From positions 1 through 54,524 of IMG/VR virus record IMGVR_UViG_3300034357_000647: 54,524 nt of DNA. One strand, 5' to 3'. The notes under the pieces were generated by a model, which did not search any database, was not told the DNA's origin, and was given only the letters and a program-made list of their open reading frames with translations. Below are positions 1,341-18,886 of the stretch, piece by piece. Made by a program: the position numbers and the translations under genes. This DNA comes from a virus. Taxonomy: Duplodnaviria; Caudoviricetes. Every line of letters begins with the position of its first letter. Within the stretch, counting starts at the first letter, position 1.

Positions 1341-2306
1341 ATGAGTACAGCAATAACTGGTAATTTAATTTCATTAGACTTCACAAATATATCGAATCAA
1401 ACAAACGATGTAAACATATTTTCTTTTGAATCAAGTGCTGGATCTACAGAAACTATATTTGTAACTGAATTTGCTTATTATCCAACCGTTCAAATAAATA
1501 ATTTATCATTTGGATCACCAACATTAGATACATTTTTCAATGCAACAATGTTTGGTTTAGTTAAGGAATTTAATGATTTTTATATAGGTATTTACTCTTT
1601 TACTTATGAATTAATTTCTGGTGTGGGTATTGGTGCTATTTATAGACTTTTTGTTAAGCAATTAAATTCTAATTATATACCAGTTTCAATATATAGTGAT
1701 CAATTTTATTATTTTACTGAAAAACAAGTTATTTCTGGTTCAACAGTAGCTGTAACATCTAATTCTGAATTAAGTTATAATGAAATTTCAAATGATTTAC
1801 AAGTACAACCATATATAATTGATTCAATTAATGTATATGCCAATACGCTTTCACAAGTAGATATTAGATGGAAAAAAATAATTAAAAATGCAAATGGAGT
1901 TTCAGCTACAGATTTTAACCAACCTAGAGTTGATCCAATGCAAAAGCAATTTGCAATTGAAAATATACCATTAAATTTTACACCAAGTTCAATAAATATT
2001 TTAGGCTACCGTTTGAATGGATTACAAACAGTACGTGTATTTTTCTATTATAGAACAAAAGATCAATTTGATTTAGCAAATAAAAATTGTTTATCAAAAG
2101 AAAACTTTGATTCAAATACTAAATTTATAAACCCAGAAATTATGATTCATAAAAAACAAATAAACATACCTTTAATTGATTTAACTAAACCAACAATAAA
2201 AGCTGTTTCTATTAAAGAAAAAATAGCAAAAGAAATTAAACCTAGAGAAATTTCTGAAGCTGAAGTTTTTAGTGCATTTGATGGTGTTGATTATAAAGAA
2301 ATGTAA
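1341..2306 (+). CDS. Capsid-protein paralogue (second or minor jelly-roll protein with inserted domain)
   Basis: LSYNEISNDLQVQPYIIDSI...NANG...PRVDPMQKQ aligns by eye with ITYAEFLQDIKSSPFKVGQI...ESNG...PRLDPMQNQ of 4591-5262. Confidence 0.6.
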   Translation: MSTAITGNLISLDFTNISNQTNDVNIFSFESSAGSTETIFVTEFAYYPTVQINNLSFGSPTLDTFFNATMFGLVKEFNDFYIGIYSFTYELISGVGIGAIYRLFVKQLNSNYIPVSIYSDQFYYFTEKQVISGSTVAVTSNSELSYNEISNDLQVQPYIIDSINVYANTLSQVDIRWKKIIKNANGVSATDFNQPRVDPMQKQFAIENIPLNFTPSSINILGYRLNGLQTVRVFFYYRTKDQFDLANKNCLSKENFDSNTKFINPEIMIHKKQINIPLIDLTKPTIKAVSIKEKIAKEIKPREISEAEVFSAFDGVDYKEM

Positions 2307-2308
2307 AT

Positions 2309-2339
2309 AAAAAAGCGAGAATTAAACCTCGCTTTTTTT
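2309..2339. terminator. Bidirectional intrinsic terminator
   Basis: aaaaaagcgag-aattaaac-ctcgctttttt between convergent genes. Confidence 0.8.
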
Positions 2340-2340
2340 A

Positions 2341-2610
2341 TTAATCAATCCATCTACGAACACTACGCTCTTGAAGCTCTTTACCATATTGCTTTTTACC
2401 GTATTTTAAATTTTCAATTTGTTTTTCTAAATTAGAAATATCAATAAATAAAATATTTCTATTTCTAATTGCACCCTCCACGAATTCAGAAGGTGCTTTA
2501 TCTTTTATATATTGCATTAAAATAGCTGTTTCAGCAGTAAGTTGTGTTTTTTTTAAATTAAGCTCTTCAACAACTACATTTGATTGTTTTTCATTAAATG
2601 GAGTTTTCAT
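2341..2610 (-). CDS. Hypothetical coiled-coil protein
   Basis: 89-aa ORF, last of a tight 3-gene minus-strand operon. Confidence 0.7.
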   Translation of the reverse strand: MKTPFNEKQSNVVVEELNLKKTQLTAETAILMQYIKDKAPSEFVEGAIRNRNILFIDISNLEKQIENLKYGKKQYGKELQERSVRRWID

Positions 2611-2611
2611 A

Positions 2612-3457
2612 TTAAATAGGATCAGTTAAATATTGAAGTTCTTTTAACTGAACTTTATCTTTTTTTATTTCTTCAATAATACCATTAACCCTATTTTTTA
2701 AAGAAGTATAGTACAGCCATAATTTTTCTTCATCATTTACATGTTCAGAATATTTATCTAAAATAAATTGCAGTTGAACATCAATACCAGTTTTAGCAAT
2801 TAAATTACCACGTTTATAATAATCTTCAACTTTTTCTTTAGCTTCAGCAAGTTCTACTTCATAAACTGGCAAAAATTGTTCAACGTAATATTCATTCCTA
2901 GAATTTAAACGTTTGTTTAAAGTTTTTAAATGAAGTTCTTTTTCAAATATTTCTAGCTTTAATTTTGAGCTTTCATAAAATGTTAATCCACCTTCAGATA
3001 AAACATTATTTCCTTCTTCAATAAAACTTTTAATGTATTCAATATTTTTTTCAAGATTATCAATTACAAAAGGGTGTTCAATATTAGCTGGTAATTTAAC
3101 AGCCTTACCAAAAATTTCATATTCAGATAATTTTTCAGCTTCTTTTTGGTGATTAATAAATTCAATCGTTTCTTTTTCTTCTTTAGTTGCAATTTTATCA
3201 ACTTGTGGTATAACGTAATGTTGGTAATCTCTTCTTGTTAATTTAAAACGTTCAGACAACTGGCGAGCTTTCCATTCATTTTCATTTAATTCAATTTGAA
3301 GTTGAGAACTTTCTAACTTTGAAAGTTTTTTACTTTCCAATTTCATTTTGATTTCTTTAATAAGATCTGAATGTAACGCTACACCTTTTGCATAGGTTTC
3401 CATTAATTTTTCAGACATATCTTTTTTGTACAATAATGTTACTAATTTTTGATCCAT
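2612..3457 (-). CDS. Hypothetical alpha-helical protein with internal duplication
   Basis: 281 aa; LSKLESSQLQIELNE...YVIP resembles LTFYESSKLKLEIFE...QFLP. Confidence 0.75.
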   Translation of the reverse strand: MDQKLVTLLYKKDMSEKLMETYAKGVALHSDLIKEIKMKLESKKLSKLESSQLQIELNENEWKARQLSERFKLTRRDYQHYVIPQVDKIATKEEKETIEFINHQKEAEKLSEYEIFGKAVKLPANIEHPFVIDNLEKNIEYIKSFIEEGNNVLSEGGLTFYESSKLKLEIFEKELHLKTLNKRLNSRNEYYVEQFLPVYEVELAEAKEKVEDYYKRGNLIAKTGIDVQLQFILDKYSEHVNDEEKLWLYYTSLKNRVNGIIEEIKKDKVQLKELQYLTDPI

Positions 3458-3468
3458 TTTATTTTGTT

Positions 3469-4188
3469 TTAATTTAATTTACCAAACCAAGTTGTGTTAT
3501 AATGCTTACATTGAATTGTTGTATCAACATAAATAGGTATTTGCAAATAGAAACAATCATTTGCAAACCAAGTATCAGAATGAAAGTTTACATTTTCAAC
3601 AGCTCTAAAAGGAATTTTTTCAAATACTGAACGGTGAATTAATACACAACCTAATCCAGCGTGATAAACTTGTTTTAATTGTCCATTAAAAAAAGTAGGT
3701 TCTTCATCTGTTAAAAATAAGGGAGTTCTATATTCACGAATATTTTTATCATACGGTTCATCAATCTGAATCATAGGAGTTCTTTTTGATCCAAAAAATA
3801 AATCATAAACACCAGCACAAACCTTTTTATTATTATTTAATAAACGTTCAATAACATCAAAAGGAGGTATAATATCAGTTTCTAAATGAAATATAAAATC
3901 AAAATCATGTTTTAAAGCATATAATCTACAAGCTTCATGTGAATCATTAATCGTAAAAATAATCCCTTTTTTATTTTGAGGGATATGTTTTACTTTAATA
4001 CCTAGATTTTTAAATTTTTTGTAATTTTCTTTTGAAATAGAATTATCGGCTAAAAAGACTTCATATCTATGAGCTGGATAAGTCAAGTTTTTTACTCGTT
4101 CCCACCAAATTTCCCAAGCATAATTTTTACTTTCATGTTGGGGCGCACAAATCAATACTTTTGGTAATTGTATTTTTTCGTTTTTCAT
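3469..4188 (-). CDS. Glycosyltransferase, GT2/GT-A fold
   Basis: KVLICAP start, FLADNS, FIFHLETD (DxD-like), GLGCVLIHRSVFEKI, SDTWF, IYVDTTIQCKH. Confidence 0.85.
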   Translation of the reverse strand: MKNEKIQLPKVLICAPQHESKNYAWEIWWERVKNLTYPAHRYEVFLADNSISKENYKKFKNLGIKVKHIPQNKKGIIFTINDSHEACRLYALKHDFDFIFHLETDIIPPFDVIERLLNNNKKVCAGVYDLFFGSKRTPMIQIDEPYDKNIREYRTPLFLTDEEPTFFNGQLKQVYHAGLGCVLIHRSVFEKIPFRAVENVNFHSDTWFANDCFYLQIPIYVDTTIQCKHYNTTWFGKLN

Positions 4189-4429
4189 TCTTTTAAATAT
4201 TTTCGTCTAAATTATATATTATAAATACCTAAAAAACAGTTATTCGTTAACATTGTTTAACGTTGCAATTAATTGATAATAAGCAAGTAAACCTTTAATA
4301 TATAACTAAATGTTATTGCTAGATTTTATAAAACCTATCAAACAACACAACTTTGTAACAATTAGCGAAACAGTGAGTGTTCGCTGTTAGCATTAAAAAA
4401 TTTGTGTAAATTTTAAAAAACAAAAAAAA

Positions 4430-4552
4430 ATGAAAACAATTAATCCATTAGTTCAAATTTTAAAAGAAGCTTTACCAGTAGTTATTGGTGTTGCTGGTGG
4501 TATGTTCGTTTATGAGTTCGCCAAAAAGCAAATGACAAAAACAACAATGTAA
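4430..4552 (+). CDS. Small membrane protein (40 aa), not in ORF track
   Basis: MKTINPLVQILKEALPVVIGVAGGMFVYEFAKKQMTKTTM*, A-rich start context, directly before capsid gene. Confidence 0.7.
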   Translation: MKTINPLVQILKEALPVVIGVAGGMFVYEFAKKQMTKTTM

Positions 4553-4590
4553 TCTTCAAAAAAGAAGTTTAATTTAAAAAAATCAAAAAA

Positions 4591-5262
4591 ATGAATTATT
4601 TTGAAACAGCAGAGAGTTTCGCAAACGAAAACTACTCTAATTATAGTGGAAGCGAATGGAATAATTTCGTAGATGCTTATGCTTATGCAGATGGTGGAGC
4701 AGAACAAGACATTGCATCTTCTTTGCCTTTCGTAATCAATATTAACAACTCTACTACAAATGACGTTAGTTCAGTAGTTGTTTTAAATGCGAATACAGCT
4801 GGAAACGCTTCAGCACCAGCATTCGGTAACAATGCAGCAATTACTATTACTATGGACAATGGTGATATTACTTATGCAGAGTTCCTACAAGACATTAAAT
4901 CTTCTCCATTTAAAGTTGGTCAGATTTACTTGCAATCAGCAAACGCTTCACAACCGTTTAAAGCATTAACAATCAAACATAGAGAATCAAATGGTATCGT
5001 AAGATCTATTCCAGTATCTCCACGTTTAGATCCAATGCAAAATCAATCTGGTGTTACTATCGTGAAATACCAATTCCCAGTAAACGCTTACACATCAATC
5101 ACAACAACAATTTTAGCAAGTGCTACATTGACTATGTCATTATATCCTTCTGAACAAATTAACGTTGCTCGTTCATTATCTGGACAAGATGTTACTAAAG
5201 CTTACGCTAGACCAAGTTTATCTCAATTACAAATTCCTAACGGAAGACCATTAGTTGGATAG
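4591..5262 (+). CDS. Putative major capsid protein, single jelly-roll-like
   Basis: 223 aa with about 8 alternating beta-strand segments; codons typical of high expression (aac, ttc, tac, atc); followed by strong terminator; acidic/aromatic N-terminal arm. Confidence 0.65.
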   Translation: MNYFETAESFANENYSNYSGSEWNNFVDAYAYADGGAEQDIASSLPFVININNSTTNDVSSVVVLNANTAGNASAPAFGNNAAITITMDNGDITYAEFLQDIKSSPFKVGQIYLQSANASQPFKALTIKHRESNGIVRSIPVSPRLDPMQNQSGVTIVKYQFPVNAYTSITTTILASATLTMSLYPSEQINVARSLSGQDVTKAYARPSLSQLQIPNGRPLVG

Positions 5263-5344: not shown

Positions 5345-5749
5345 ATGAATGTATATCAATATACAGCTTTAAACAATCCACAAGGTTCAACCAATATGGT
5401 TGAAAGTTATGGTATTAGAGCAATTAGACACCCAAAACATTTAGCGAAACAATTAGCGTTGGTAGTTGCTAAACATAGAGATAGTGCTTTGGGGAAATTA
5501 GCTGAAATTCATCCAGACGTTCCATTGTTTCAAAAACAAATTGATGATTTCAAAGTGAAAATAAAATCAGAAAGCGAAAAAAACAACTCTTCATTTTCTA
5601 ATTTTATTGATGGACAAACGATAAAATCTGATATAGCTTCACTACAAGATAAAGTTTCAACAACTCCAGAAACTGGTAAAAGCAAAACAGAATTATTAAT
5701 TATCGGTGGGGTAATAGTTATTGGTTTAGCTATCATTTTCAAAAAATAA
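5345..5749 (+). CDS. Virion membrane protein, C-terminal anchor
   Basis: Ends LLIIGGVIVIGLAIIFKK; carries FSNFIDG. Confidence 0.75.
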   Translation: MNVYQYTALNNPQGSTNMVESYGIRAIRHPKHLAKQLALVVAKHRDSALGKLAEIHPDVPLFQKQIDDFKVKIKSESEKNNSSFSNFIDGQTIKSDIASLQDKVSTTPETGKSKTELLIIGGVIVIGLAIIFKK

Positions 5750-5762
5750 AAAAAAAATAAAG

Positions 5763-6386
5763 ATGATATACGGTGGTGATATAATGAGTAATTTTTCTGG
5801 ATCAATCATGTCAAATGATAAAGAAATGCAAAAGGATATTTTATTGTCTGAAATTCATAAGATTTTAGATAAAAACCCTAAATCATTAATTGATGCCTTA
5901 AAAAATTCTGGTGTAGATGTTCCTTCAGATATATCAAAAAAACATTTAATTCATTTGGTGGTTGAAGCTGTTTATGAAAATACTAAATTTAGAGAAAATA
6001 TAGCATTTTTAATAGCTCAAAATCAAAATTCAAATTTCTCAAATGCAAATGGTGAATTAATTGATAAAATAAAAGGTTTTTTCGCCAAATCTGGTGATGG
6101 TTCATCGGATTCAACAGCTGAAGGTGCTGGTGGAAAAATTTTAGGTGGAGCTTCAAGTGGTGGTGTTGTAGGTGCTGTATCTGGAGCAGTAAATTCAATT
6201 TTTGGATTTGCTAAATCTAAAACAGATGCAAAAACACAAAAAGAAGCTGATAAACAAACATTAATATTAGCTCTTACCCAAGACGAAGAAAAAAAGAAAA
6301 GTAATTTAATGCCAATCATAATAATTGCAACTGTTTTATTAATCGGTGGTGCAATTGCAGTTGTTTCATTAAGAAATAAAAAGTAA
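5763..6386 (+). CDS. Virion membrane protein, Gly-rich segment and C-terminal anchor
   Basis: Ends IIIIATVLLIGGAIAVVSLRNKK; carries MSNFSG and FSNANG. Confidence 0.75.
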   Translation: MIYGGDIMSNFSGSIMSNDKEMQKDILLSEIHKILDKNPKSLIDALKNSGVDVPSDISKKHLIHLVVEAVYENTKFRENIAFLIAQNQNSNFSNANGELIDKIKGFFAKSGDGSSDSTAEGAGGKILGGASSGGVVGAVSGAVNSIFGFAKSKTDAKTQKEADKQTLILALTQDEEKKKSNLMPIIIIATVLLIGGAIAVVSLRNKK

Positions 6387-6389
6387 AAA

Positions 6390-6905
6390 ATGAATAATAA
6401 CGCTACTTATTACAATTGCCAAATAACGAGGGATTTTAAAGCTCCAAAACGTAATGGTGGTTCAGTAATGTACAAAGAGTTAAAAAAAAACAATGTTATT
6501 GTAGCAACACCAATAAATGCAAGCAGTACACCAAATTCTGTATTGAAAGTATTTAAAACACAAGATGGTTATATGATACCAGAAAATTGTGTTCATATAT
6601 TATCGAAAGTAAAACAACATTCAAACGTGAATGGTTCAGAAGAAATTGAATATGCAGAAATAGTTGAAGATAAGCCAAAAACAATGGCTTTACCAACACC
6701 TACTTCAATTAAAACTGGATTAACACAATCAATTCAAACAAAAAGCAAAATTGCAGTAAATGGAGCTTTAATTGGATTAGGCGTAGGATTAGTTTATGCT
6801 ATGATGAAACAGAAAAATAAATTAATGTTTTCAGCTTTAGGATCTGTAGGAGGATTCTTTATTGGAAACTTATATAATAACTATATAAACGAAGATAAAA
6901 AATGA
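6390..6905 (+). CDS. Membrane protein with two C-terminal hydrophobic helices
   Basis: GALIGLGVGLVYAMM and FSALGSVGGFFIG; carries HSNVNG. Confidence 0.75.
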   Translation: MNNNATYYNCQITRDFKAPKRNGGSVMYKELKKNNVIVATPINASSTPNSVLKVFKTQDGYMIPENCVHILSKVKQHSNVNGSEEIEYAEIVEDKPKTMALPTPTSIKTGLTQSIQTKSKIAVNGALIGLGVGLVYAMMKQKNKLMFSALGSVGGFFIGNLYNNYINEDKK

Positions 6906-7360
6906 TTACAAGAACTCAATGGAAGCCTTTAGATGCTAGGGGAATAGTGCCATTTACAGTAAATAAATCTATTACACTTGATTTATACACATGTGATAAA
7001 GATAAAGAAGGCACAAAACAAACGTTCATGAAAGATTCAAAGTTTGAAGGTCAATTAGTAAGAGCTAGAATTTCAAAACGTTTATTAAATGGTGCTTTTG
7101 TTCCACATACAGAAACAAGTGGTTTAATGGTTACTACTCCAGATAAATCTGGTTATTATTTAATTCCAACTTCTGTAGCCCAACCAATCGAAGAAGTTGA
7201 AATAGATGAAACTATTTCACCTATGAATAAATCATTAACATCAGATATTCAAACTGGATTAAAAGATATTAATGAAAACCCAGAAAAAAAATACTTTGGT
7301 TTTACTGTTAAGCAATTATTAGTAATCGGAGTAGCATTATTAATCGTAAGAAAACTTTAA
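6902..7360 (+). CDS. Membrane protein, C-terminal anchor
   Basis: Ends LLVIGVALLIVRKL. Confidence 0.7.
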   Translation: MITRTQWKPLDARGIVPFTVNKSITLDLYTCDKDKEGTKQTFMKDSKFEGQLVRARISKRLLNGAFVPHTETSGLMVTTPDKSGYYLIPTSVAQPIEEVEIDETISPMNKSLTSDIQTGLKDINENPEKKYFGFTVKQLLVIGVALLIVRKL

Positions 7361-7364
7361 AAAA

Positions 7365-7850
7365 ATGTCAAGATCTCATTACTATCATATAGATGCAATG
7401 GTTAACAATGTTGCAACAGCACCTTTAGAACCAGTATTAAGTCCAGAAACACAGCCTACATCTTCAAGACCAACAAGAGGAACAGCTGATGTCTTAACAA
7501 CTAGTCCAGTATTTACTATGCCAACTTACACACCTACAATGTCAATTGACGAAGGGGATAGTAGAGGTAATGTTTTAACAACTCGCCCAGTATTTACTAT
7601 GCCAGTTTACACGCCAACAGTAACCGTTCCGATTTCAGATGTTGTACCAGTTGCACTTGCTACGCCAACAGCAATTAAACCAATGCCTACTTATGGTGGT
7701 GGAGGTGGTGGTGGTGCTATGAGTACACCAAAACCACAAACAAAAGAATTTATGGAAGCACCAAAACCAAGTTTTTTGAAAAGAAATTGGTTGCCAATTT
7801 TATTAATTGGATCAGCAGTTTTCATTTTAATTAAAAAACCAATAAAATAA
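7365..7850 (+). CDS. Pro/Thr-rich membrane protein with poly-Gly and C-terminal anchor
   Basis: Duplicated VLTTxPVFTMPxYTPT, GGGGGGG, ends WLPILLIGSAVFILIKKPIK. Confidence 0.75.
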   Translation: MSRSHYYHIDAMVNNVATAPLEPVLSPETQPTSSRPTRGTADVLTTSPVFTMPTYTPTMSIDEGDSRGNVLTTRPVFTMPVYTPTVTVPISDVVPVALATPTAIKPMPTYGGGGGGGAMSTPKPQTKEFMEAPKPSFLKRNWLPILLIGSAVFILIKKPIK

Positions 7851-7855
7851 GCAGT

Positions 7856-8230
7856 ATGAATACAAATATGCAATTAGAATTAATCCAGAATCAACAAGAT
7901 AACCTTTCGGCTAACAAAGTTTACAGAGGTTGGTTAAATGCTGGTGGAACTGGTTCATTTAAAGACTTTATGACAAAAGCACAACAAGAAGGTTGGTTAG
8001 ACCAAGGGTTGAACGCTTTAAGTGCATTAGCATATACTAAATACGGTACAGAGGGAACAAAAGGTGATATTATTGGTGATACTCCATGTGATGAAGGTTA
8101 TGCAAAAGATGAAAATGGAATTTGTCAGCCAATCAAAAAAGGAATGTCAACTATAGCTATGGTTGGTATTGGCGTTGCTATAGCTGGGGTTATTACTGGA
8201 GTTATTATATTAATGAATAAGAAAAAATAA
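7856..8230 (+). CDS. Membrane protein with small Cys loop and C-terminal anchor
   Basis: CDEGYAKDENGIC before IAMVGIGVAIAGVITGVIILMNKKK. Confidence 0.75.
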   Translation: MNTNMQLELIQNQQDNLSANKVYRGWLNAGGTGSFKDFMTKAQQEGWLDQGLNALSALAYTKYGTEGTKGDIIGDTPCDEGYAKDENGICQPIKKGMSTIAMVGIGVAIAGVITGVIILMNKKK

Positions 8231-8236
8231 GAAATT

Positions 8237-8587
8237 ATGGGATTTAACGAAGAACTATACACAATGGGATTAAAACCAAGTGTATCTAAAAAAGGATATA
8301 ATAATTTTAATACTGGTGATGAAATACCGACATTAGCATTAAAACCAATTAATAATACAATTACACCAGAATTAACAGCGTTTAAATCAAACGCTGGATT
8401 AATGGCGTTAAAAGCAAACGAAGTATTCAAAGATTCTTTTGGTATTCCTGATTTAACTTCAACTAATACTGAAGATGAAGAAATGAAAGAAAAAATGACT
8501 ACTAAAACAAAACAAATTGTTGTTGGATCAATGGTTGCTTTGGCATTAGGTGTGGTAATTTTTATAGTAATTAAAAACAGAAAATAA
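8237..8587 (+). CDS. Membrane protein, C-terminal anchor
   Basis: Ends IVVGSMVALALGVVIFIVIKNRK; carries YNNFNTG. Confidence 0.75.
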   Translation: MGFNEELYTMGLKPSVSKKGYNNFNTGDEIPTLALKPINNTITPELTAFKSNAGLMALKANEVFKDSFGIPDLTSTNTEDEEMKEKMTTKTKQIVVGSMVALALGVVIFIVIKNRK

Positions 8588-8589
8588 TT

Positions 8590-9093
8590 ATGGGATCAAT
8601 ACCTTATTTATACGTAGTAGATGAAGCAAAAACGCTTCAAGCGAAAAACGATGAAATCATAAAAGAAGTTTGTTTTACTGAAGATTACGCGAACTTCGAT
8701 TCTAGTGATATAAGTAAAATTTGTGATGGTTTAGGTACTAAATCTGGAGATTGTACAGACCAATTAGATGGAACTGAATCTACTGGTTATGATTTAGACT
8801 TCAATATTAAATATTGGAAAGCAGTAAAAAAAGGGTATAAAGGTACAATTAAAGAATTTGATGATCGTCAACAAAAAGTTGGTAAAGCATTCGGTTACGC
8901 AACAACAGCTGGTACTTTTTTAGCTGGTTTGTTATCAAAAAAATCTAATCAAGGTGAATCAGTAAGTTATGACAAAACAACGGAAGAAGATATTAAACCA
9001 AAAATGAGTATTGGTTCAATATTAGGTTTAAGTGTTGGTGTAATAGCTTTAATAGGTGTAGGTTTATATTTTGCTTTAAGAGATAAAAAATAA
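8590..9093 (+). CDS. Membrane protein, C-terminal anchor
   Basis: Ends ILGLSVGVIALIGVGLYFALRDKK; carries YANFDS. Confidence 0.75.
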   Translation: MGSIPYLYVVDEAKTLQAKNDEIIKEVCFTEDYANFDSSDISKICDGLGTKSGDCTDQLDGTESTGYDLDFNIKYWKAVKKGYKGTIKEFDDRQQKVGKAFGYATTAGTFLAGLLSKKSNQGESVSYDKTTEEDIKPKMSIGSILGLSVGVIALIGVGLYFALRDKK

Positions 9094-9099
9094 TAATTA

Positions 9100-9861
9100 A
9101 TGAACGAATTTAAAATACCTTGTAACGGAGAGCCAAGCAAAATACTTTTAAAAGTGAGTGTAAATTCACCAATAAAAGTACGTGTAATGGCTTTTAATCC
9201 AAATGTGCCAAATACGTACTATACTAATAGAGTAAAAACAGTTAATGGTCAAGGTGAGTTTGAAGTTCGTATGCCACAAAATTGCGAAAATGTAATTGTA
9301 AGAGTTATACCTTTAAATGGAGCAAGTAATCAATTAAAAATTGTTTCAGTTGAAAAACAAAAACTAAATCAATTTTCAAATTGTTTTTCAGATAAAAACA
9401 TAATGAGCTTTGTTAAGTTCGCACAAGAATTTAGTGAAAAAGCTTCAATTTTATCAAAAGGAACTTATTATAGTGATGATCGTAAATATAGAATTGATTA
9501 TTTTGATGTAATTACACAAGAGGGAAGAACAATACCAACTCCAGCACGTATAAGTAACATAAATGGTAGAATGGAAGTTGCAAAAAGAAGTTTTGTAAAC
9601 TATACAGTACCAATGAGAATGGCAATTTTGTTGCATGAATATTCACACTTTAACTTGAATAAAATTCAGCACGATGAAATTGAAGCAGACTTAAACGCGT
9701 TAAGAATCTATTTGGGGTTAGGCTATCCAGTAATTGAAGCACATAACTCATTTTTAAATGTATTTAAAAATACACCAACACAACAAAATAAAGAACGCTA
9801 TCAATATATAAAAACGTTCATTGATAATTTTGAAACGTTAAAATATAAAATTTGTTTATAA
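9100..9861 (+). CDS. Zincin metallopeptidase with N-terminal beta domain
   Basis: AILLHEYSH (HExxH) followed by EIEAD...GY, an M48-like ligand pattern. Confidence 0.75.
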   Translation: MNEFKIPCNGEPSKILLKVSVNSPIKVRVMAFNPNVPNTYYTNRVKTVNGQGEFEVRMPQNCENVIVRVIPLNGASNQLKIVSVEKQKLNQFSNCFSDKNIMSFVKFAQEFSEKASILSKGTYYSDDRKYRIDYFDVITQEGRTIPTPARISNINGRMEVAKRSFVNYTVPMRMAILLHEYSHFNLNKIQHDEIEADLNALRIYLGLGYPVIEAHNSFLNVFKNTPTQQNKERYQYIKTFIDNFETLKYKICL

Positions 9862-9874
9862 TAAATCCAGTAAA

Positions 9875-10036
9875 ATGAAAATCTACGTAAGAAAACACAC
9901 AAACAAAACAGCTTTTGAAAAACATAAAGCTGGACTAAAAAAAAGAGGTGCAAAAATTGATAAAATTGAAGGAATGACAATTACTTATCGTTTCCCAGTT
10001 TCTCCATCAAAAAACACTTCAAGATACGAAAATTAA
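9875..10036 (+). CDS. Small basic protein (53 aa), not in ORF track
   Basis: MKIYVRKHTNKTAFEKHKAGLKKRGAKI...YEN*; possible DNA-binding core protein. Confidence 0.6.
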   Translation: MKIYVRKHTNKTAFEKHKAGLKKRGAKIDKIEGMTITYRFPVSPSKNTSRYEN

Positions 10037-10061
10037 TAAATAACAAATAAACCCAAAAACG

Positions 10062-10199
10062 ATGAACAAAAAAGTATTAATCGGAATCGGAGTTGTAGCA
10101 ATCCTAGGATATTTATGGTACACAAACGATAAAAAAACAAAAACCACAAAAGTAACTACTCCACCAGCTGTATTAGCAGAAGAAGTAAAAGTAGCTTAA
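10062..10199 (+). CDS. Small membrane protein (45 aa), not in ORF track
   Basis: MNKKVLIGIGVVAILGYLWYTNDKK...*, followed by terminator. Confidence 0.7.
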   Translation: MNKKVLIGIGVVAILGYLWYTNDKKTKTTKVTTPPAVLAEEVKVA

Positions 10200-10207
10200 T
10201 TTATTTT

Positions 10208-10235
10208 AAGGCAAGTTTTCGGATTTGCCTTTTTT
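10208..10235 (+). terminator. Intrinsic terminator
   Basis: aaggcaagt-tttcgg-atttgcctt plus T run. Confidence 0.75.
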
Positions 10236-10255
10236 ACATTTTAAATATAAAGAAA

Positions 10256-10375
10256 ATGGAATTAAAAGAAGAAGAAAAAAAGAAAAAAAGAATGTATCAA
10301 ACATTTTTAATCGGTGGAAGTTTTATAATTCTTTCAACGTTAGTTATATTTGCAATTAAAACACGTAAAAAATAA
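10256..10375 (+). CDS. Small membrane protein (39 aa), not in ORF track
   Basis: MELKEEEKKKKRMYQTFLIGGSFIILSTLVIFAIKTRKK*. Confidence 0.65.
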   Translation: MELKEEEKKKKRMYQTFLIGGSFIILSTLVIFAIKTRKK

Positions 10376-10381
10376 TAAAAA

Positions 10382-10888
10382 ATGGCAGTATTACAAAATT
10401 TACCCCCAAGAGCAAGAGGAATAATCGCAGTTGTCGTTACGGTTAGTGTCGTTACTGGTGCTGTTTTTGGAATTATAGCTATTAGAAATGCAGTTAAAAA
10501 AAAACAAGCTGGAACTAGCACTGGGCAAAAAGAAGAACAAAAGCAAGTAGAAAAAGAACTTGATGTTTTAAATAAAGATGCAAAAACAAAACAAAAATTA
10601 ACAAAATCACAAGCTGAAGCTATTGCAAATATATTTGATGCCTCAATGCAAGGTTTAGGAACAGACGAGCAATCTATTAAAGATCAATTTTACAAAATGC
10701 AAAATGATGCAGACTTTGCAGCTGTTGATAAAGCGTTTGGTAAAAGATTAATTTATTCTGGTTCATGGCTTTTTGTTTCTGATGTAGAGTTAACAATGAT
10801 ACCAGCTTTACACAATGAATTAAGTGATTGGTGGATTAACGAAATAAATGGAATTTTAAAAGCAAGAAATATTACATATAGAATCTAA
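10382..10888 (+). CDS. N-anchored membrane protein with annexin-like motif
   Basis: TM IIAVVVTVSVVTGAVFGIIAI; SMQGLGTDEQSI resembles annexin GxGTDE. Confidence 0.65.
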   Translation: MAVLQNLPPRARGIIAVVVTVSVVTGAVFGIIAIRNAVKKKQAGTSTGQKEEQKQVEKELDVLNKDAKTKQKLTKSQAEAIANIFDASMQGLGTDEQSIKDQFYKMQNDADFAAVDKAFGKRLIYSGSWLFVSDVELTMIPALHNELSDWWINEINGILKARNITYRI

Positions 10889-11562
10889 TGAAAACAATAG
10901 AAAAACAATTAGGAGGTTTAGTTACTAGACATTTAGGTTCTGGAAACGCATTTGGAGAATTTGATAATTTTTCTGGAAATGATTGGAACAACGCTATAGG
11001 TGATGGCTTTACTTTAGATGGTTTAAACAATGAAATAGCACGTTTAGAAGCTGATCATCGTTTAGAAATGACAAAAAGAGCTGAATTAATTGCGAAACGT
11101 GATAGTGTACAATCAAAATATAACGCTTGTCAAAACATTAAAAAAAATAAAGACAAAGAAAGTTGTAAATCGCAATATTATCAATCATATTTAAGTTTAG
11201 AAAACCAAGTAGCAACAGCTTATACAGATACACAAAATGCTGGTGATTATATCACTAAAATGAAGGAAGCTTATAACGTAAAACTTCAACAAGCAAAAGA
11301 AGCTGAAGATAAGCGTATTGCTGATGAAAAAGCAAAAGGTAATATTGTAGCTAGAGATCCTAAATTAGAAGGTGCAACTCCAAAAGATTTAGATAAATTA
11401 AATAATCCTCCAGTTCCACCAATTAATGCTTCATCAAGTGAAGTTGAAAAAGCAACAAAAATCCCAGAGAAAAAAAATACTGGTAGAAATATTGCTTTAA
11501 TAGGAGGTGGTTTACTTTTGGTAGTAGGTGTGTTTTTGTTTATTAGATCAAGAAGAAAATAA
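10888..11562 (+). CDS. Coiled-coil membrane protein, C-terminal anchor
   Basis: FDNFSGNDWNNAIG at N-terminus, long helix, ends IALIGGGLLLVVGVFLFIRSRRK. Confidence 0.75.
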   Translation: MKTIEKQLGGLVTRHLGSGNAFGEFDNFSGNDWNNAIGDGFTLDGLNNEIARLEADHRLEMTKRAELIAKRDSVQSKYNACQNIKKNKDKESCKSQYYQSYLSLENQVATAYTDTQNAGDYITKMKEAYNVKLQQAKEAEDKRIADEKAKGNIVARDPKLEGATPKDLDKLNNPPVPPINASSSEVEKATKIPEKKNTGRNIALIGGGLLLVVGVFLFIRSRRK

Positions 11563-11565
11563 TTT

Positions 11566-11766
11566 ATGAGTTTACTTATAGATTTAACAAAAAGTGTACG
11601 TGGCAAGTCTATTGAAAAAGTATCAATAGACTTGCACAAAAAGAGAGTTGAAATTTGCAACTCATGTGAAAATAAAATGATAACTGGTAATTGTTCATTG
11701 TGTGGCTGTTTTACAAACGACAAAGCAAAATATGTAAATGAAGAGTGTCCTATTAATAAGTGGTAA
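11566..11766 (+). CDS. Small Cys-rich protein (DUF6171-like)
   Basis: RVEICNSC...CSLCGCF...CPINKW. Confidence 0.65.
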   Translation: MSLLIDLTKSVRGKSIEKVSIDLHKKRVEICNSCENKMITGNCSLCGCFTNDKAKYVNEECPINKW

Positions 11767-12080
11767 TGGTTAATTGGAAAAAAGCAAGTGCAATATTAGT
11801 AACAATTGGAGTAACAGCAACAGTCTTGTATGTTTCTTACTCGGTTGTTTTTTTAGCTAATAAAAAAGATTTAGCAATTATAAAAACAGCAGAACCTAAT
11901 AATCGTTTGTTTCAAAAACTAATGACTGGCGAAGCTGAAAAAATGGAAAAAAAGATTTCAAACATTACCAAAAAACAATTAAAACGACTTCATGAATTGA
12001 GTTTAAAAGAAGAGTTTACAGATGAAGAGCTTAAAGAATACGATTCAATTATAAAGAAGTGGGATTATAAAAATAAATAA
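11760..12080 (+). CDS. N-anchored membrane protein (likely start 11766)
   Basis: TM ASAILVTIGVTATVLYVSYSVVFL then charged helix. Confidence 0.7.
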   Translation: MVMVNWKKASAILVTIGVTATVLYVSYSVVFLANKKDLAIIKTAEPNNRLFQKLMTGEAEKMEKKISNITKKQLKRLHELSLKEEFTDEELKEYDSIIKKWDYKNK

Positions 12081-12081
12081 T

Positions 12082-12681
12082 ATGAAAGTAAATTACGTTA
12101 AAGTAGGAATTTTTTCAGTTTTAGGTGTGGCTACCATTTATGGAGGTTATAAACTGCATAAATATTTTAAAGAAAAAGCTGAAAAAGCTCGTTTAGAAAA
12201 ATTATTAAAAGAAAGCACCTCACAAATAGCTGTTACTGAAGTTCTTTCTTCTAACAACGCTGAAAAAGAAATAGTTGTAACCCCAGCATTTGATGGGAAT
12301 AAAGTTGTTTCAAAAGGTTCAAAAGGTGTTGAAGCAAAAACAATTCAATTAGCATTTAATAATATTATTGAAGATGCTAAAAAAGTTAATTTATTAGCAA
12401 TACCAAGTAATTATAAACCTTCTGAAGAAAAATCAGCTTCATCATGGCTTTTAGAGCCTTTTAAGGCATCAATTGCAGTAGGTAATCTTGTAAAAGTTAG
12501 TGAAAGAGTTAAACAAATTGCTTCTTTACAAAAATTAGCAACAGATGGTAATTTTGGTGCAAAATCAGAAAGTGTTTGTCAAGTAATTATGGGTAAAAAA
12601 TCAACTACTTATAATGAAGTAATGCAAAAAAGAGTTAACTTTTCTAAAGCATACGGTTTGCCAAATCCATATAACAAATAA
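12082..12681 (+). CDS. N-anchored protein with split peptidoglycan-binding-like motif
   Basis: VSKGSKGVEAKTIQLAFN ... LATDGNFGAKSE matches both halves of PG_binding_1 pattern. Confidence 0.6.
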   Translation: MKVNYVKVGIFSVLGVATIYGGYKLHKYFKEKAEKARLEKLLKESTSQIAVTEVLSSNNAEKEIVVTPAFDGNKVVSKGSKGVEAKTIQLAFNNIIEDAKKVNLLAIPSNYKPSEEKSASSWLLEPFKASIAVGNLVKVSERVKQIASLQKLATDGNFGAKSESVCQVIMGKKSTTYNEVMQKRVNFSKAYGLPNPYNK

Positions 12682-12696
12682 AATAAAAACTAAATT

Positions 12697-13002
12697 ATGA
12701 ATCAAGAAATATTACACGATAGTTACGATTACGCTGGAGGAGTTCAATTAGATGGATGTTGGTTAAAATATCCGGGCAAAAAAAACAAAACAAAGCGTGA
12801 AGAGTGCCATGCCTTATCAACAAAACAAAAAGAATCGAGTTTAGAAACTGATAAAATGTTAGCACAAGCTGTTTTAGCTAAAAGCACAAAAACAACAAAA
12901 GAAGAGGGTTTGTCAGCAATGGCTATAACTGGTATTATTGTAGGTTCATTACTTGCAATAACGTTAATGGTTGTTGTAATTAAAAAAGTAAAATCAAAAT
13001 AA
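12697..13002 (+). CDS. Membrane protein, C-terminal anchor
   Basis: YDYAGG near N-terminus; ends AITGIIVGSLLAITLMVVVIKKVKSK. Confidence 0.75.
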   Translation: MNQEILHDSYDYAGGVQLDGCWLKYPGKKNKTKREECHALSTKQKESSLETDKMLAQAVLAKSTKTTKEEGLSAMAITGIIVGSLLAITLMVVVIKKVKSK

Positions 13003-13009
13003 TTAGATC

Positions 13010-13495
13010 ATGACTTTAAAAAAAGGATTAATATTAGCTGGTATTGGAAGTTTAGTAGTTGGAATAGCTTTATGGGTAAAATACCAAATGGAATTGAGTT
13101 ATAAGTTAATTTATAACACAAAAAATGCTCGTTTAAAAAAGTTTACAGCAAATGAACTTGTTGTAGAATTTGATATGACTATTGATAATCCAACAGAATT
13201 AAAAGTAGGCATCAATGGAATGGACATAGATGTATATGCAAATGGCGTTAAAGTTACAAATATATATAGTCAAGTTCCAATTACACTTTCACCGAATACA
13301 ATGGTTGCTCTACCTTTAAAATTATCTTTAAATCCACAATCATTAATCCAAAATACTGGAGTTTTATTAAGTACTGGAACGGATATTAAGAAAGTGCTTT
13401 TAACATTAAAAGGTACACTTAAAATTAAGAAATTTGGTATTTCGTTCCCAGTACCATTTGTGTACACAGCAACTTATGGAGAATTAATGGGATAA
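13010..13495 (+). CDS. LEA_2/WHy-like beta-sandwich membrane protein
   Basis: N-terminal TM then FDMTIDNPT...MDIDVYANG...LTLKGTLKI pattern. Confidence 0.7.
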   Translation: MTLKKGLILAGIGSLVVGIALWVKYQMELSYKLIYNTKNARLKKFTANELVVEFDMTIDNPTELKVGINGMDIDVYANGVKVTNIYSQVPITLSPNTMVALPLKLSLNPQSLIQNTGVLLSTGTDIKKVLLTLKGTLKIKKFGISFPVPFVYTATYGELMG

Positions 13496-13555
13496 TGCCT
13501 TGAATCTTTTACTTTTTTTACTATATTTATGCCTTGAAATTAAAAACACAAGAAA

Positions 13556-13984
13556 ATGATAGTAGGAAAAGTAAAAGGAATCATGACAAATTGTTTAATA
13601 AGATTAGCAAGCAATGAACAAAAGCACGAAACGAGCGTTTCAATTGGCATAAGAACAACAGAAGAGGATTTTACACCTTCATATTTTTACACAGTCAACG
13701 GACAACCAGTAATGAATGAAGAGAAAACAGAATTTAAAGAATTAGATTTTAACAGAGATATATTAGGCGTTAAATTTGATTTATTAGGTCAAAAATATTT
13801 AACTGCAAATTATATTAAAAATCTAATTAAATCAGTTGTTGAGGTAGAAAAAATACCTTCAAAAGAACTGTTTTATTTAATTAGATTTATAGATTCTGAT
13901 TCAAAAGTTTTAACAGTTGGAATGTATCAAAAAGGTAAATTTTTAAGATCAATGTCAATAAATGACTTTTTAGGAGATAATTAA
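13556..13984 (+). CDS. Hypothetical protein
   Basis: 142-aa ORF with A-rich start context. Confidence 0.7.
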   Translation: MIVGKVKGIMTNCLIRLASNEQKHETSVSIGIRTTEEDFTPSYFYTVNGQPVMNEEKTEFKELDFNRDILGVKFDLLGQKYLTANYIKNLIKSVVEVEKIPSKELFYLIRFIDSDSKVLTVGMYQKGKFLRSMSINDFLGDN

Positions 13985-14004
13985 ATAAAAAAAAAATACA
14001 AGAA

Positions 14005-14283
14005 ATGAGTACAATTTTAACGGAAACTTTCACTACAGAATTAACAAACAATTCTATAACATTAACAGAAGGCATGGGGGTTAGGGCAATTACAGTTTAT
14101 TGTACCACAACTACAAGTGGAACAGTAACTGGTTCTCAACCATTAGGTTCAATATCTTCATCAGCAATTACAATTACGCAAAATACTTCATTTAATCAAT
14201 CTGCAATTGGAACTGGAGTTTTAACTGGTTTAACAATTACAGCACCAGCAAGTTGTACATTAATAGTTGTAGCACAAATTTAA
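14005..14283 (+). CDS. Small all-beta structural protein (vertex or spike base candidate)
   Basis: 92 aa, Thr/Ser/Gly-rich alternating strands, directly before spike genes. Confidence 0.55.
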   Translation: MSTILTETFTTELTNNSITLTEGMGVRAITVYCTTTTSGTVTGSQPLGSISSSAITITQNTSFNQSAIGTGVLTGLTITAPASCTLIVVAQI

Positions 14284-14292
14284 TTTTAAGAA

Positions 14293-16026
14293 ATGGGAAT
14301 TATAGGAAATGGTGGTTTAACAATTTTTAATAGTGGTTCGTCTGGTACTATTACAGCACAAAATTTACCAGTTAAATTTGTAGATACTGTTACGGGAATG
14401 GCAACACCATCAAGTGTTTACGTAAGTGGTTCAGATCCAACACAACCAGCACTGGGTGCAACATTAACAGCCTCAATTAATAGTACATTACCAAACTACA
14501 ATGGAGTAACTTCATTTGTAGGTATGAAAATTTTATTAACTAATCAATTTACACCAGCACAAAATGGTGATTATGTAGTTACTTCAATTGGTAGTGCTTC
14601 TTCTAAATGGTCAATGACTAGAATTACATATAGTTCTGAAGGTTTTTATCCTTCTTTATGGGAAGTCTATCAAGGCACATTAATAGGTAATTTTTATGAA
14701 CAAACAACTTCTACTTTAAACACTTCAACTATAGGTACTGTAGGAAGTATAGTTTTTCTTAACGTAACGCCAACTTCAGCAAGTGGAATTTGGGGTATAT
14801 CAAATTCAAGTGGAGTTTATACTTATTATACAACTTATGCATTAGCAAGAGCAGCAGCTACATCTGGACAAACAATTGAATTATTTGCAGATGTTACTGA
14901 AACAACTGATGTATCAATTATATTAAAAGATGGTGTAAATATTAATGGTAATGGTCATACTTACATCTTATCTCAAGCTAGTACATCATCAACAATAACT
15001 GATAATGCAGTAGCTGTTACTTGTGATGTTTCAGATATAATTTTAAAACGTAGTGGGGGAACTGCATCATTATCAAATACTGCTACTATATTATTAAGTG
15101 GTGCATCTAAAGTTACTGGTACAGCAATTTGCTATAGTTCTTGTGGAGTAAGTATTTTAATTACAAATGCTTCTGCTGAATTAAATGGTTTTAAAGGTAT
15201 AACAACAACAAATTATCTTGGTGTTTATTCTAATGGAATATTAAAAAATATACATGGAGAATCATATTCAAATGATTACCATTATTCAATCTTTTCAACT
15301 GGAACCTCTATAAATTGTCATGCTTTAGGTTTTGGATTATATAATTACGCATTTTATAACGGTGGGATATCAACTAATTGTACTGGAACAGTAACTGGAA
15401 GTTTCGGGGGTGGTTTTTTTAATGATGGTGGTACTGCAATTGCAACTAATTGTAGTGGAAAATCAGTTGGTAATATTGGTTTTAGATCAGGTGGAGCTGC
15501 TATTAACTGTGTAGGTGTTTCAACGTCAGGTAGAGGTTTTTCTGGTCAAGGTTCAGGAAATATTTTAGAAAAATGTTCTGGTTATAGTTCTTCAAATGTT
15601 GGGTTTTATTCTTATGGTTCTAGGGCTATTGATTGCACTGGTGTATCGATGTCAAACATAGGGGTAACAATTGAAAATGGTAATGATAGTCAAGCTGGAT
15701 GTATTAATTGCACTGGTGTATCTTATGCAAATGTAGGAATGTTTTGTAATTTCGCACCAAATAACCTTGGTGTTGTAACTCCTAAAGCGATTTCATATTA
15801 TAATAACGCAGCTGGTCATGCTTTACAGATTGGTTCATTTGGAAATACAGTTATTAATGGTTATTTAGCAGCTGGAGCTACTACTGCTAATTGTATATAT
15901 AGTGCATCAGTAATTTCAACTAAATACGCTCAAAATACTTATGTAATAGCAACCACCCCAGTAAATGCAAACATAACCCAATCAATGGTTAATACACAGG
16001 ATAATTACGGTAATATTTTATTATAA
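14293..16026 (+). CDS. Spike/receptor-binding protein with beta-helix repeats
   Basis: 577 aa; ILLTNQFTPAQNGDYVVT fibre-type motif; recurring NCxG repeats (TNCTG, TNCSG, INCVG, IDCTG, INCTG). Confidence 0.75.
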   Translation: MGIIGNGGLTIFNSGSSGTITAQNLPVKFVDTVTGMATPSSVYVSGSDPTQPALGATLTASINSTLPNYNGVTSFVGMKILLTNQFTPAQNGDYVVTSIGSASSKWSMTRITYSSEGFYPSLWEVYQGTLIGNFYEQTTSTLNTSTIGTVGSIVFLNVTPTSASGIWGISNSSGVYTYYTTYALARAAATSGQTIELFADVTETTDVSIILKDGVNINGNGHTYILSQASTSSTITDNAVAVTCDVSDIILKRSGGTASLSNTATILLSGASKVTGTAICYSSCGVSILITNASAELNGFKGITTTNYLGVYSNGILKNIHGESYSNDYHYSIFSTGTSINCHALGFGLYNYAFYNGGISTNCTGTVTGSFGGGFFNDGGTAIATNCSGKSVGNIGFRSGGAAINCVGVSTSGRGFSGQGSGNILEKCSGYSSSNVGFYSYGSRAIDCTGVSMSNIGVTIENGNDSQAGCINCTGVSYANVGMFCNFAPNNLGVVTPKAISYYNNAAGHALQIGSFGNTVINGYLAAGATTANCIYSASVISTKYAQNTYVIATTPVNANITQSMVNTQDNYGNILL

Positions 16027-16316
16027 TGTTAGAAAAATTAGATATAATAGATCAGGATGTATGTTGCTATAATGAACAATACAATCTTGAAAAAGTTTTA
16101 AAATTATCTCAATTTGTGGGAATTGATTTTAGTTATTTAGAAGGTGCAAAATTATTTACATTAAATATTACTCAACCAATAAAAAGAGTAGTTAAATTTA
16201 CTGATTTAAATGGTGCAACTCTTAATGATGAATTTGTTATATTCCCATATGATGATATGACACCTGAACAAAAAGCAGATTTTGATTCATTTGTAGAACA
16301 AGCAAATACTTTATAA
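16026..16316 (+). CDS. Small acidic protein, probable spike chaperone
   Basis: Coupled directly to preceding spike gene. Confidence 0.55.
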   Translation: MLEKLDIIDQDVCCYNEQYNLEKVLKLSQFVGIDFSYLEGAKLFTLNITQPIKRVVKFTDLNGATLNDEFVIFPYDDMTPEQKADFDSFVEQANTL

Positions 16317-16317
16317 A

Positions 16318-17952: not shown

Positions 17953-17955
17953 AAC

Positions 17956-18303
17956 ATGAAAATACAAACATTAATACCAGTAACATATAATTCTGGAATA
18001 GCAAGTCAACAAACAGCAAAAGTTGAAGGAGAAATAATAATTGTAAGACAAGATTATTTAAGAGATAATTACAACTTCATGTTTACTTACAAAACAGAAG
18101 CAGGTGAACAAATTCAAACACCTTCTTCAGATTTTACATTAACAAAAGATGAAATCAATGCTTTTTATAATGTTGTAAAAGTAGGAGTACCAACAGATAT
18201 GCAATATTTTGAAACAACTCAATATGTTTATTATCTAGGCTTCAAAGTAGAAATGGCAAAAACTTTTGGTATTGAGCCAAGTGATATTGAGATAATTTTA
18301 TAA
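17956..18303 (+). CDS. Probable fibre assembly chaperone
   Basis: 115 aa directly after fibre gene. Confidence 0.6.
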   Translation: MKIQTLIPVTYNSGIASQQTAKVEGEIIIVRQDYLRDNYNFMFTYKTEAGEQIQTPSSDFTLTKDEINAFYNVVKVGVPTDMQYFETTQYVYYLGFKVEMAKTFGIEPSDIEIIL

Positions 18304-18305
18304 TT

Positions 18306-18461: not shown

Positions 18462-18466
18462 CTGAC

Positions 18467-18884: not shown

Positions 18885-18886
18885 CT

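Follow-up and report, generated by a model that had tools for sequence, protein, structure and literature searches.

Paralogous candidate capsid proteins of a putative tailless bacterial virus in a chimeric metagenomic virus record

Proteins A and B and their common core

Near the start of the metagenomic virus record IMGVR_UViG_3300034357_000647, the whole 54,524 nucleotides of which are referred to here as the window, two plus-strand open reading frames (ORFs) at 1341..2306 and 4591..5262 encode proteins of 321 and 223 amino acids (aa), called A and B in the present study. They had initially been annotated as paralogous capsid-like proteins, the longer of which carries an inserted domain. 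The sequence blocks on which that annotation was based are present in both translations, including the common ...DPMQ loop, and the two genes are, as had been described, not adjacent and separately transcribed; three minus-strand ORFs (89, 281, and 239 aa) lie between them.

By several sequence comparisons, A and B are true, distant copies of one protein. The C-terminal block that they have in common is similar far beyond chance by BLASTP, by profile alignment with hhalign, and by a block hidden Markov model (HMM). BLASTP aligns A with B at E 1e-5, with 26% identity over 77 aa spanning the annotated blocks. A profile-profile check with hhalign between 8 A-type and 39 B-type sequences gave 94.8% (E 4.9e-8, 110 columns), and with 53 A-type sequences, obtained by searching 1.84 billion representatives with a profile (85 matches at E <=1e-3), the result was 98.5% (E 3.2e-15, 141 columns), in which A 98-239 pairs with B 44-188. 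Likewise, with an HMM built from A residues 135-240, the B genes of related loci score E 1e-17 to 1e-5. The N-terminal strand that was also proposed to be common is insignificant alone (BLASTP E 6.5; alternative hhalign alignment E 0.34); the accompanying picture of an insertion is backed by the architecture of the family. Homologues of B number 116, at 35-98% identity. Neither protein has a Pfam, PHROG, or NCBIfam match, and a tblastn search of 50,697 phage records with A, B, and two products of neighbouring genes, an ATPase and a protein with an HExxH motif, found nothing.

The extra, variable domain of the longer protein was supported by a survey of spacer lengths in 72 family members that have both the N-terminal strand (N-strand) and the C-terminal block (C-block). 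The spacer is 4, 28, approximately 100-117 (most of the proteins), 125-162, 309-364, or 490-513 residues long. P0151 (213 aa), in which the spacer is the 4-residue one, can be aligned with the B family (97.1%, E 5e-11), and beta-propeller Pfam matches lie in the spacer of 3 of the 21 long family members. Among the five closest homologues of A, the C-block is the best conserved part (mean identity 91%), followed by the N-strand (85%), the tail (78%), and the insert (66%). Between the window and a related viral genome (G001), A is 36% and B is 71% identical. Based on these alignments, A is the core of B, split after the first strand or strands by a fast-changing insert.

Other forms of A were observed. 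In two close relatives (L038 6733..7751; L035 4795..5421) the A gene is split or shortened to a C-terminal half of approximately 208 aa, and A forms of 203-211 aa are also found among the database representatives. The first strand contains an Asn that is invariant in both families (N16 in A and N53 in B; window 1353..1430 and 4720..4790), often with Ser or Thr at +2. An N-glycosylation sequon in this strand was considered, there being a glycosyltransferase-like gene between A and B, and was not relied on because the Ser/Thr at +2 is absent in many members. When an HMM of the N-terminal arm of B (residues 1-45, 4591..4725) was compared with 177 ORFs of the window and G001, the five best non-self matches were all tail-anchored proteins of the module to which A and B belong, at the weak statistics of E 0.003-0.38. 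A short aromatic-x-(N/G)-x-DG-like motif is common to these proteins, the N-terminal parts concerned including those of the ORFs at 5763, 10888, and 12697, and protein A closes with a comparable motif. To judge from these resemblances, the motif of the B arm may be a common docking signal.

The AlphaFold2 model of B, based on a 39-sequence alignment, has a mean predicted local distance difference test (pLDDT) score of 72 and a predicted template modelling (pTM) score of 0.63; the core (residues 45-195) is mostly at 74-95, flanked by disordered ends. The predicted fold of B is a jelly-roll sandwich, as are its structural matches in every search, which include many capsid and penton proteins of viruses and no specific relative. 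The two highest scores (Z 6.0 each) belong to a phage tail domain and an AlgX module, with the PR772 penton protein P31 close behind (Z 5.9, root-mean-square deviation 3.2, 96 of 124 residues), then the major capsid protein of FLiP and STMV (both Z 5.4); a second fold search gave a similar result. Matches of B in BFVD have TM-scores of 0.35 or less, and a search of the ESM Atlas returned no usable match (ESM model pTM 0.26). The jelly-roll suggested for the pair is therefore upheld as a prediction for B and was not obtained for A, the fold of which was not modellable from an 8-sequence alignment (mean pLDDT 43.7). The secondary-structure string of A from residue 135 does repeat that of B from residue 84.

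A chimeric record and the gene block around A and B

Comparison of the window with itself and with its relatives shows it to be a chimera, in which a fragment of one virus and a complete tailed phage have been joined by assembly. A closed tailed phage with a unit of 36,851 bp occupies 16942..53792, and, by the same comparisons, positions 1 to approximately 17.0 kb are a piece of a different virus, which is the owner of A and B. This conclusion is drawn because of the terminal repeat, the relatives that lack the block, the cut first gene, and the lack of tailed-phage genes in related loci. The terminal 732 bases (53793..54524) are 98.8% identical to 16942..17673; eight of the nine mismatches fall within the first 32 bases, and the final 615 bases are an exact copy of 17059..17673. 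Two relatives of the tailed phage (L072, 97% identical; L074, 91% identical, a 36,552-bp contig) pass from their last fibre gene straight into the equivalent of window 14.8-18.5 kb and onward past 18.5 kb, close on themselves, and do not have window 1..14.7 kb. At the other end, the contig start cuts a gene; the first 53 codons are the C-terminus of an ORF, 328 aa in its homologues, that precedes the ATPase gene in relatives. Finally, the terminase, portal, protease, and capsid candidate of the window have no match in 36 related metagenome loci of at least 6 kb or in G001. On this evidence the join passes through a fibre segment common to both viruses, which suggests a common host.

The window would alternatively be a real 54.5-kb hybrid, a tailed phage carrying the ATPase, jelly-roll, and membrane block as an accessory module. 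It is one contig, rated 100% complete by CheckV, and the G+C content is 0.294 in both parts; in addition, three lake-water runs contain 95-99% of the sampled words of 12001..21000, a result that two co-occurring viruses would also give. A hybrid would have to accommodate the exact terminal copy at a spacing of one phage unit, the close relatives in which the fibre gene is followed directly by phage sequence, a contig start inside a gene of another virus, and the absence of the tailed-phage genes from all of the related loci, and it is considered highly improbable. The simpler form of the proposal, a single tailed phage with an odd accessory block, was dropped on account of the repeat, the relatives without the block, and the synteny of the block elsewhere. 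Even a record to which a completeness of 100% is assigned may consist of two viruses joined through a common fibre segment.

The tailed-phage part encodes replication genes, TerS and TerL, a tape-measure-like gene, a ClpP-type head protease, a capsid candidate, and a portal, the relatives of which are all in Bacteroidota phages. The hosts of the lineage to which A and B belong are probably freshwater and marine Bacteroidota. Fibre segments common to the tailed phage and the tailless-type virus lie at 16942..17673, 53793..54524, and 14783..16286, and a close phage relative carries the C-terminal part of the 577-aa fibre protein at 85% identity. These shared segments suggest that unrelated virus types on the same host have exchanged receptor-binding parts.

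On the other side of the join, the block begins with the upstream ORF, the ATPase, A, two or three reversed genes (among them the glycosyltransferase-like gene), and B, followed by membrane-anchored proteins, the HExxH protein, a LEA_2-domain protein, two small ORFs, and fibre genes (Table 1). G001 and the metagenome loci have this order too. Of the reversed genes, the 281-aa ORF is rich in charged residues and has a coiled-coil look by eye, with no Pfam or PHROG match, and the glycosyltransferase-like protein, present in most of the 36 loci, matches Pfam Anp1 at E 4e-4 (below the cut-off) and NCBIfam GT2 at E 0.028. In a hydropathy scan, 13 of the 17 plus-strand ORFs at 5.3-13.6 kb (the 16 at 5345..13495 and the 142-aa ORF at 13556) have a hydrophobic segment, C-terminal in nine, compared with 9 of 55 ORFs in the tailed-phage remainder. 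The HExxH protein is among the best conserved products of the module and is matched by no Pfam or PHROG family and by no phage record. A homologue of the 544-aa fibre protein is present in G001, and the tailed-phage relatives carry parts of the fibre genes.

The ATPase is a candidate genome-packaging motor, to judge from its alignments. It matches Pfam DUF87 at 24.7 bits (cut-off 23.2), as do 15 of 20 homologues, and hhalign aligns it with the packaging ATPase of P23-77, ORF13, at 75% (E 2.5e-5, 164 columns of 224 residues). With P9 of PRD1 the match is at the Walker A motif only (18 columns), and the controls gave 0.4% (TerL of the window), 3.6% (an SbcC-like ATPase), and 0.2% (SSB). Because the P23-77 template is a single sequence, the support for a P23-77-related ATPase is modest. 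Among PDB sequences, the ATPase finds only P-loop matches, at E 0.03 or above.

Table 1. Features of the window and, in the last line, of related genomes. Percentages against G001 are amino acid identities.
Feature	Position	Strand	Basis or remark
3' end of gene cut by contig start	2..163	+	BLASTP to last 47 residues of G001 ORF: 57%, E 1e-12
P-loop ATPase, HerA/FtsK kind, 283 aa	183..1034	+	Pfam DUF87; 74% identical to G001 copy
Protein A (321 aa), jelly-roll paralogue with insert and tail (jelly-roll predicted for B)	1341..2306	+	BLASTP, hhalign, HMM
A N-strand, residues 5-30	1353..1430	+	N-strand HMM in 72 proteins beside C-block
A variable insert, residues 31-134	1431..1742	+	Spacer 4-513 residues; least conserved part
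A C-block, residues 135-240, common to B	1743..2060	+	hhalign; block HMM matches B genes
A tail, residues 241-321	2061..2303	+	Lysine-rich, conserved acidic/aromatic end; modelled without confidence
89-aa ORF	2341..2610	-	Conserved in close relatives; 45% identical to G001 copy
281-aa ORF	2612..3457	-	Beside glycosyltransferase-like gene in most loci; 50% identical to G001 copy
Glycosyltransferase-like protein, 239 aa	3469..4188	-	Weak Pfam Anp1, NCBIfam GT2; 66% identical to G001 copy
Protein B (223 aa), candidate shell protein	4591..5262	+	Core residues 44-190, flexible N-terminal arm
16 ORFs, mostly small membrane-anchored proteins	5345..13495	+	Hydropathy scan, synteny
HExxH protein, 253 aa	9100..9861	+	67% identical to G001 copy; in nearly all loci
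LEA_2-domain protein	13010..13495	+	Pfam LEA_2 2.2e-9
Two conserved ORFs, 142 aa and 92 aa, end of module	13556..14283	+	Same place in G001 and distant loci
Fibre-/spike-like genes, 577, 96, and 544 aa	14293..17952	+	Beta-roll Pfam match; virus join inside last gene
Internal repeat copy	16942..17673	+	98.8% identical to 53793..54524
Rest of closed tailed phage	17674..53792	+	Pfam/PHROG matches; not part of A/B virus
Terminal repeat copy, contig end	53793..54524	+	Repeat comparison
PAP2 / SPFH-Band-7 genes	L165:17581-18228, L169:14964-15605, L174:12221-12883, L164:3167-3952

Relatives of the block and the proposed virus

The block of HerA-type ATPase, B, membrane-anchored proteins, and HExxH protein recurs in the 36 metagenome loci, with the ATPase present in 28 of these. 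A search of viral contigs with an ATPase alignment found 90 relatives, of which 80 loci, on contigs reaching 101 kb, were retained, and the lineage is present on 80 viral contigs and at 65 metagenome loci, from lakes and seas. The ATPase is followed by B and then by membrane proteins in 65 of 79 further viral loci; in the 14 loci without B, the sequence ends 2.5 kb or less past the ATPase. The length of B is constant, at 217-254 aa in loci of at least 12 kb. A second paralogue besides B is present in 23 of the 27 metagenome loci of at least 12 kb, and the remaining four loci break off 1.9-4.7 kb from B, in the direction in which the second copy is found in relatives. The profile of the A family matches all 44 whole viral records, with at least two separate matches in 32, among them 14 of the 17 records with a completeness of 90% or more. 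Three complete genomes encode, as the second copy, a protein of 147-173 aa that consists of the C-block alone, at 10-23 kb from B and near large or beta-propeller genes.

Whole relatives were searched for the head genes of tailed phages. G001 (64,176 bp; CheckV 100% complete) has no match to a terminase, portal, HK97 capsid, or head protease family among 48 ORFs compared with PHROGs, 35 of them also with Pfam, the ORFs of the module being covered through their window homologues; it encodes endolysins, a holin, a tailspike-like protein, giant DarB-like proteins, RecT, and SbcC. Four records of 68-84 kb (G007, G008, G011, and G036) are classed as having inverted terminal repeats and as 100% complete, and perfect repeats were confirmed in the first three (127, 123, and 123 nt, in genomes of 68.8, 67.8, and 72.5 kb, respectively). 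Among the 107 ORFs of at least 190 aa of these three genomes there is no match to a terminase, portal, capsid, protease, or tail family, nor to any DNA polymerase family. The families found there are glycosyltransferases, sugar-modifying enzymes, PAP2, SPFH, MoxR-type ATPases, polyvalent proteins, lysozymes, and RecT. In addition, 36 large flanking ORFs of the metagenome loci have no match to a terminase, portal, or HK97 capsid family, and PF04860 matches, among 45 records, the window's own portal only.

Several other genes of the relatives were noted. Giant polyvalent proteins with DarB-like methylase/helicase, Zeta-kinase, ADP-ribosyltransferase, and ArdA domains, which are probably anti-restriction cargo, are encoded at 34504..43156 of G001 (L068, L069, and L071), between the ATPase and A, and at L165:5280-7637, L173:11355-14873, and L169:4161-6923. 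A PAP2 lipid phosphatase and several sugar-modifying enzymes are present in all three complete relatives, and an SPFH/Band-7 protein in one (Table 1); this combination fits a virus that handles lipid and glycans. In G008, an 866-aa ORF (L165:2186-4783) contains an intein with a LAGLIDADG endonuclease, in a host protein that Pfam does not name.

A different kind of particle could also account for the genomes, namely a very divergent HK97-type head or a pleomorphic or enveloped virion, in which A and B would be accessory, membrane-associated, or decoration proteins. Many large ORFs of G001 and of the three complete genomes have no family match at all, so that an unrecognised capsid gene may be among them, and the fold matches of B are unspecific. 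This alternative is nevertheless quite unlikely, as four whole genomes are without a terminase, portal, protease, or HK97 capsid family match, the HerA-kind ATPase aligns with the packaging ATPase of P23-77 rather than with the TerL of the window, and inverted terminal repeats are described as usual in tailless membrane viruses (PMC12643093).

With slightly better than even confidence, A and B are believed to be parts of an uncultured large tailless membrane-containing double-stranded DNA bacterial virus, with B forming the shell and A serving at the vertex or in host recognition. The gene company, the missing tailed-phage genes, and the terminal repeats together make a tailless membrane-containing particle the best guess, and the owner of A and B is probably of an undescribed kind, with a double-stranded DNA genome of approximately 50-100 kb, no tail, and an internal membrane. 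The membrane, the tailless shape, and the division of jobs between A and B are presumed. B would be the main shell protein, and it is the best candidate because its length is constant, its conservation is second only to that of the ATPase, and its gene adjoins the ATPase in most of the group. A would be a vertex (penton-like) or turret protein meeting the host, with its fast-changing domain turned outward and a tail of approximately 80 residues; the hypervariable insert, the long tail, and the spike-like genes nearby in the wider group fit such a role. DNA would be packaged by the HerA-type ATPase, and the inner membrane would contain the membrane-anchored proteins encoded downstream. Of the two arrangements first envisaged, a two-protein lattice or a shell protein with a vertex paralogue, the extreme variability of the insert favours the second. 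If the proposal is true, the family is a natural series in which one jelly-roll gene was duplicated and one copy was turned into a host-recognition protein.

It could instead be that A and B are host-recognition or carbohydrate-binding proteins (TNF/C1q or carbohydrate-binding knobs, adhesins) or minor virion parts, and that the shell protein is another one. The AlgX module among the best matches of B is a carbohydrate-binding one, podovirus tail-nozzle domains match at Z 5.5-6.0, and C1q/TNF-type domains and collagen-linked knobs are matched in BFVD; the insert of A is hypervariable, with a beta-propeller in some members, and the neighbours of the small paralogue in the three complete genomes are of the large or beta-propeller kind. 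However, receptor binders are usually the most variable proteins, and B has a constant length and ranks with the best conserved. Its gene follows the ATPase and precedes the membrane proteins and is not beside the fibre genes. A fused form of B was not found among longer proteins, which is weak evidence. This explanation is therefore regarded as unlikely.

A number of observations weigh against a shell of B with A at the vertex. The capsid role of both proteins is deduced from gene context. Tail-nozzle domains, a carbohydrate-binding module, and TNF/C1q knobs match B as well as capsid proteins do, and in the wide VIA fold search 12 chains reached Z 5 or more and none Z 8, so that the fold is generic; Foldseek of the model against the PDB gave nothing at E <=1e-3, and neither did the B profile match any PDB sequence. 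As the A model is unusable, a common fold of A and B is supported through the homology of the C-block only, and in the best profile alignment the partner of B 44-66 is A 98-120 and not the N-terminus of A. Comparison with VP16 and VP17 of P23-77, which the initial annotation had proposed, gave no profile likeness; A and B aligned with VP16, VP17, and VP11 at less than 1% (hhalign), as they did with P31, P3, and P5 of PRD1, and the 50 best structural matches include neither VP16, VP17, nor any other Halopanivirales capsid protein. The small second paralogue of the wider group lies 10-35 kb from B and is not its neighbour as in Halopanivirales. The membrane anchors are those of a simple hydropathy scan. 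The completeness of G001 is a CheckV estimate, and no end repeats were found in it; one 1241-aa ORF of G007 was outside the scan; and tailed-phage genes were sought with Pfam and PHROG profiles, by which very divergent proteins can be overlooked. The 45 records gave no match to PF03237 or PF05065, which says little because the window's own phage was missed too. The broader analogy with tailless jelly-roll-capsid viruses is supported by the gene company (the ATPase, the anchors, and no match to head genes in four whole relatives) and not by the sequence profiles of VP16 and VP17.

A more specific version of the shell-and-vertex proposal is offered tentatively and is doubtful. The virus would belong to a widespread and undescribed lineage of lakes and seas, a giant bacterial sister branch of Halopanivirales (Singelaviria) with linear 50-100 kb genomes bounded by inverted terminal repeats, a shell of B, a vertex of A, and a receptor-binding domain in a loop of A's jelly-roll. 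The link to Halopanivirales in this version is the packaging ATPase.

Comparison with known systems

In the Halopanivirales (Matshushitaviridae, with the Thermus phages P23-77 and IN93; Sphaerolipoviridae, with SH1, HHIV-2, and HCIV-1), the analogy first drawn, each genome encodes two related single-jelly-roll proteins, one of which has an added outward domain; in the present lineage there are two paralogues, with a jelly-roll predicted for B. Two types of capsid protein are described for P23-77 (PMC6356626). The alignment of the window ATPase with ORF13 over 164 columns is a further likeness, as are the many small membrane proteins and, in the relatives, the linear genomes with inverted terminal repeats. 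The gene order of P23-77 is ATPase, two small ORFs, VP16, and VP17, whereas that of the window is ATPase, A, three reversed genes, and B, so that the adjacent pair of capsid genes that follows the ATPase closely in Halopanivirales has no counterpart here. The length of the insert varies more than 100-fold in this lineage, unlike in Halopanivirales, and its hosts are probably Bacteroidota rather than thermophiles or haloarchaea. Inverted terminal repeats and genomes of approximately 30 kbp are described for Sphaerolipoviridae (PMC12643093), whereas the relatives with such repeats are 68-73 kb here, G001 is without them, and the window fragment is without its own ends.

A PRD1-type vertex (Tectiviridae) has a small single-jelly-roll protein, similar in fold to the shell protein, whose gene lies beside spike genes; in PRD1 the gene order is P2-P31-P5, for the receptor-binding protein, the penton, and the spike, respectively. 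The match of B to P31 of PR772, which is among its best, and the small paralogue beside large or beta-propeller genes in three relatives are likenesses to this arrangement. However, the shell protein of PRD1 is a double jelly-roll, whereas A and B have one C-block each and the core of B is approximately 146 residues, and the genomes of the present lineage are 4-7 times larger.

Portogloboviridae, represented by Sulfolobus polyhedral virus 1 (SPV1), build both shell and penton from single jelly-roll proteins over a membrane. They are archaeal viruses of approximately 20 kb that are not known to have a packaging ATPase. The ATPase of the present lineage is conserved, in contrast, and the 50 best fold matches of B include no chain of SPV1. 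With regard to Caudoviricetes, the HK97 capsid, portal, and large terminase have no Pfam or PHROG match in the relatives of the virus of A and B, and the set in the window is that of the joined phage. TNF/C1q or carbohydrate-binding knobs, outside the capsid proteins, match the B model about as well as these do.

The host of SSIP-1 is a relative of Bacteroidota. Like the virus proposed here, SSIP-1 is a tailless, membrane-containing phage that is large for its kind (43,788 bp), and its genome is circular, as opposed to the linear genomes with terminal repeats of the complete relatives. Two types of capsid protein are described as encoded by SSIP-1 (PMC6356626). A relation to SSIP-1 was considered and rejected, as none of the module proteins matches any of the 37 annotated SSIP-1 proteins at E <1e-3, the sole match coming from the tailed-phage part of the window.

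No description of large tailless jelly-roll viruses of Bacteroidota was found in the titles and abstract openings of the literature. The tailless membrane phages known from culture are small, PRD1 having 15 kb, P23-77 17 kb, and SSIP-1, the largest among the records compared, 43.8 kb, whereas the relatives described here are 64-101 kb. If the proposed tailless virus with a B shell and A vertex is real, this lineage widens the size and gene range of such viruses several-fold.

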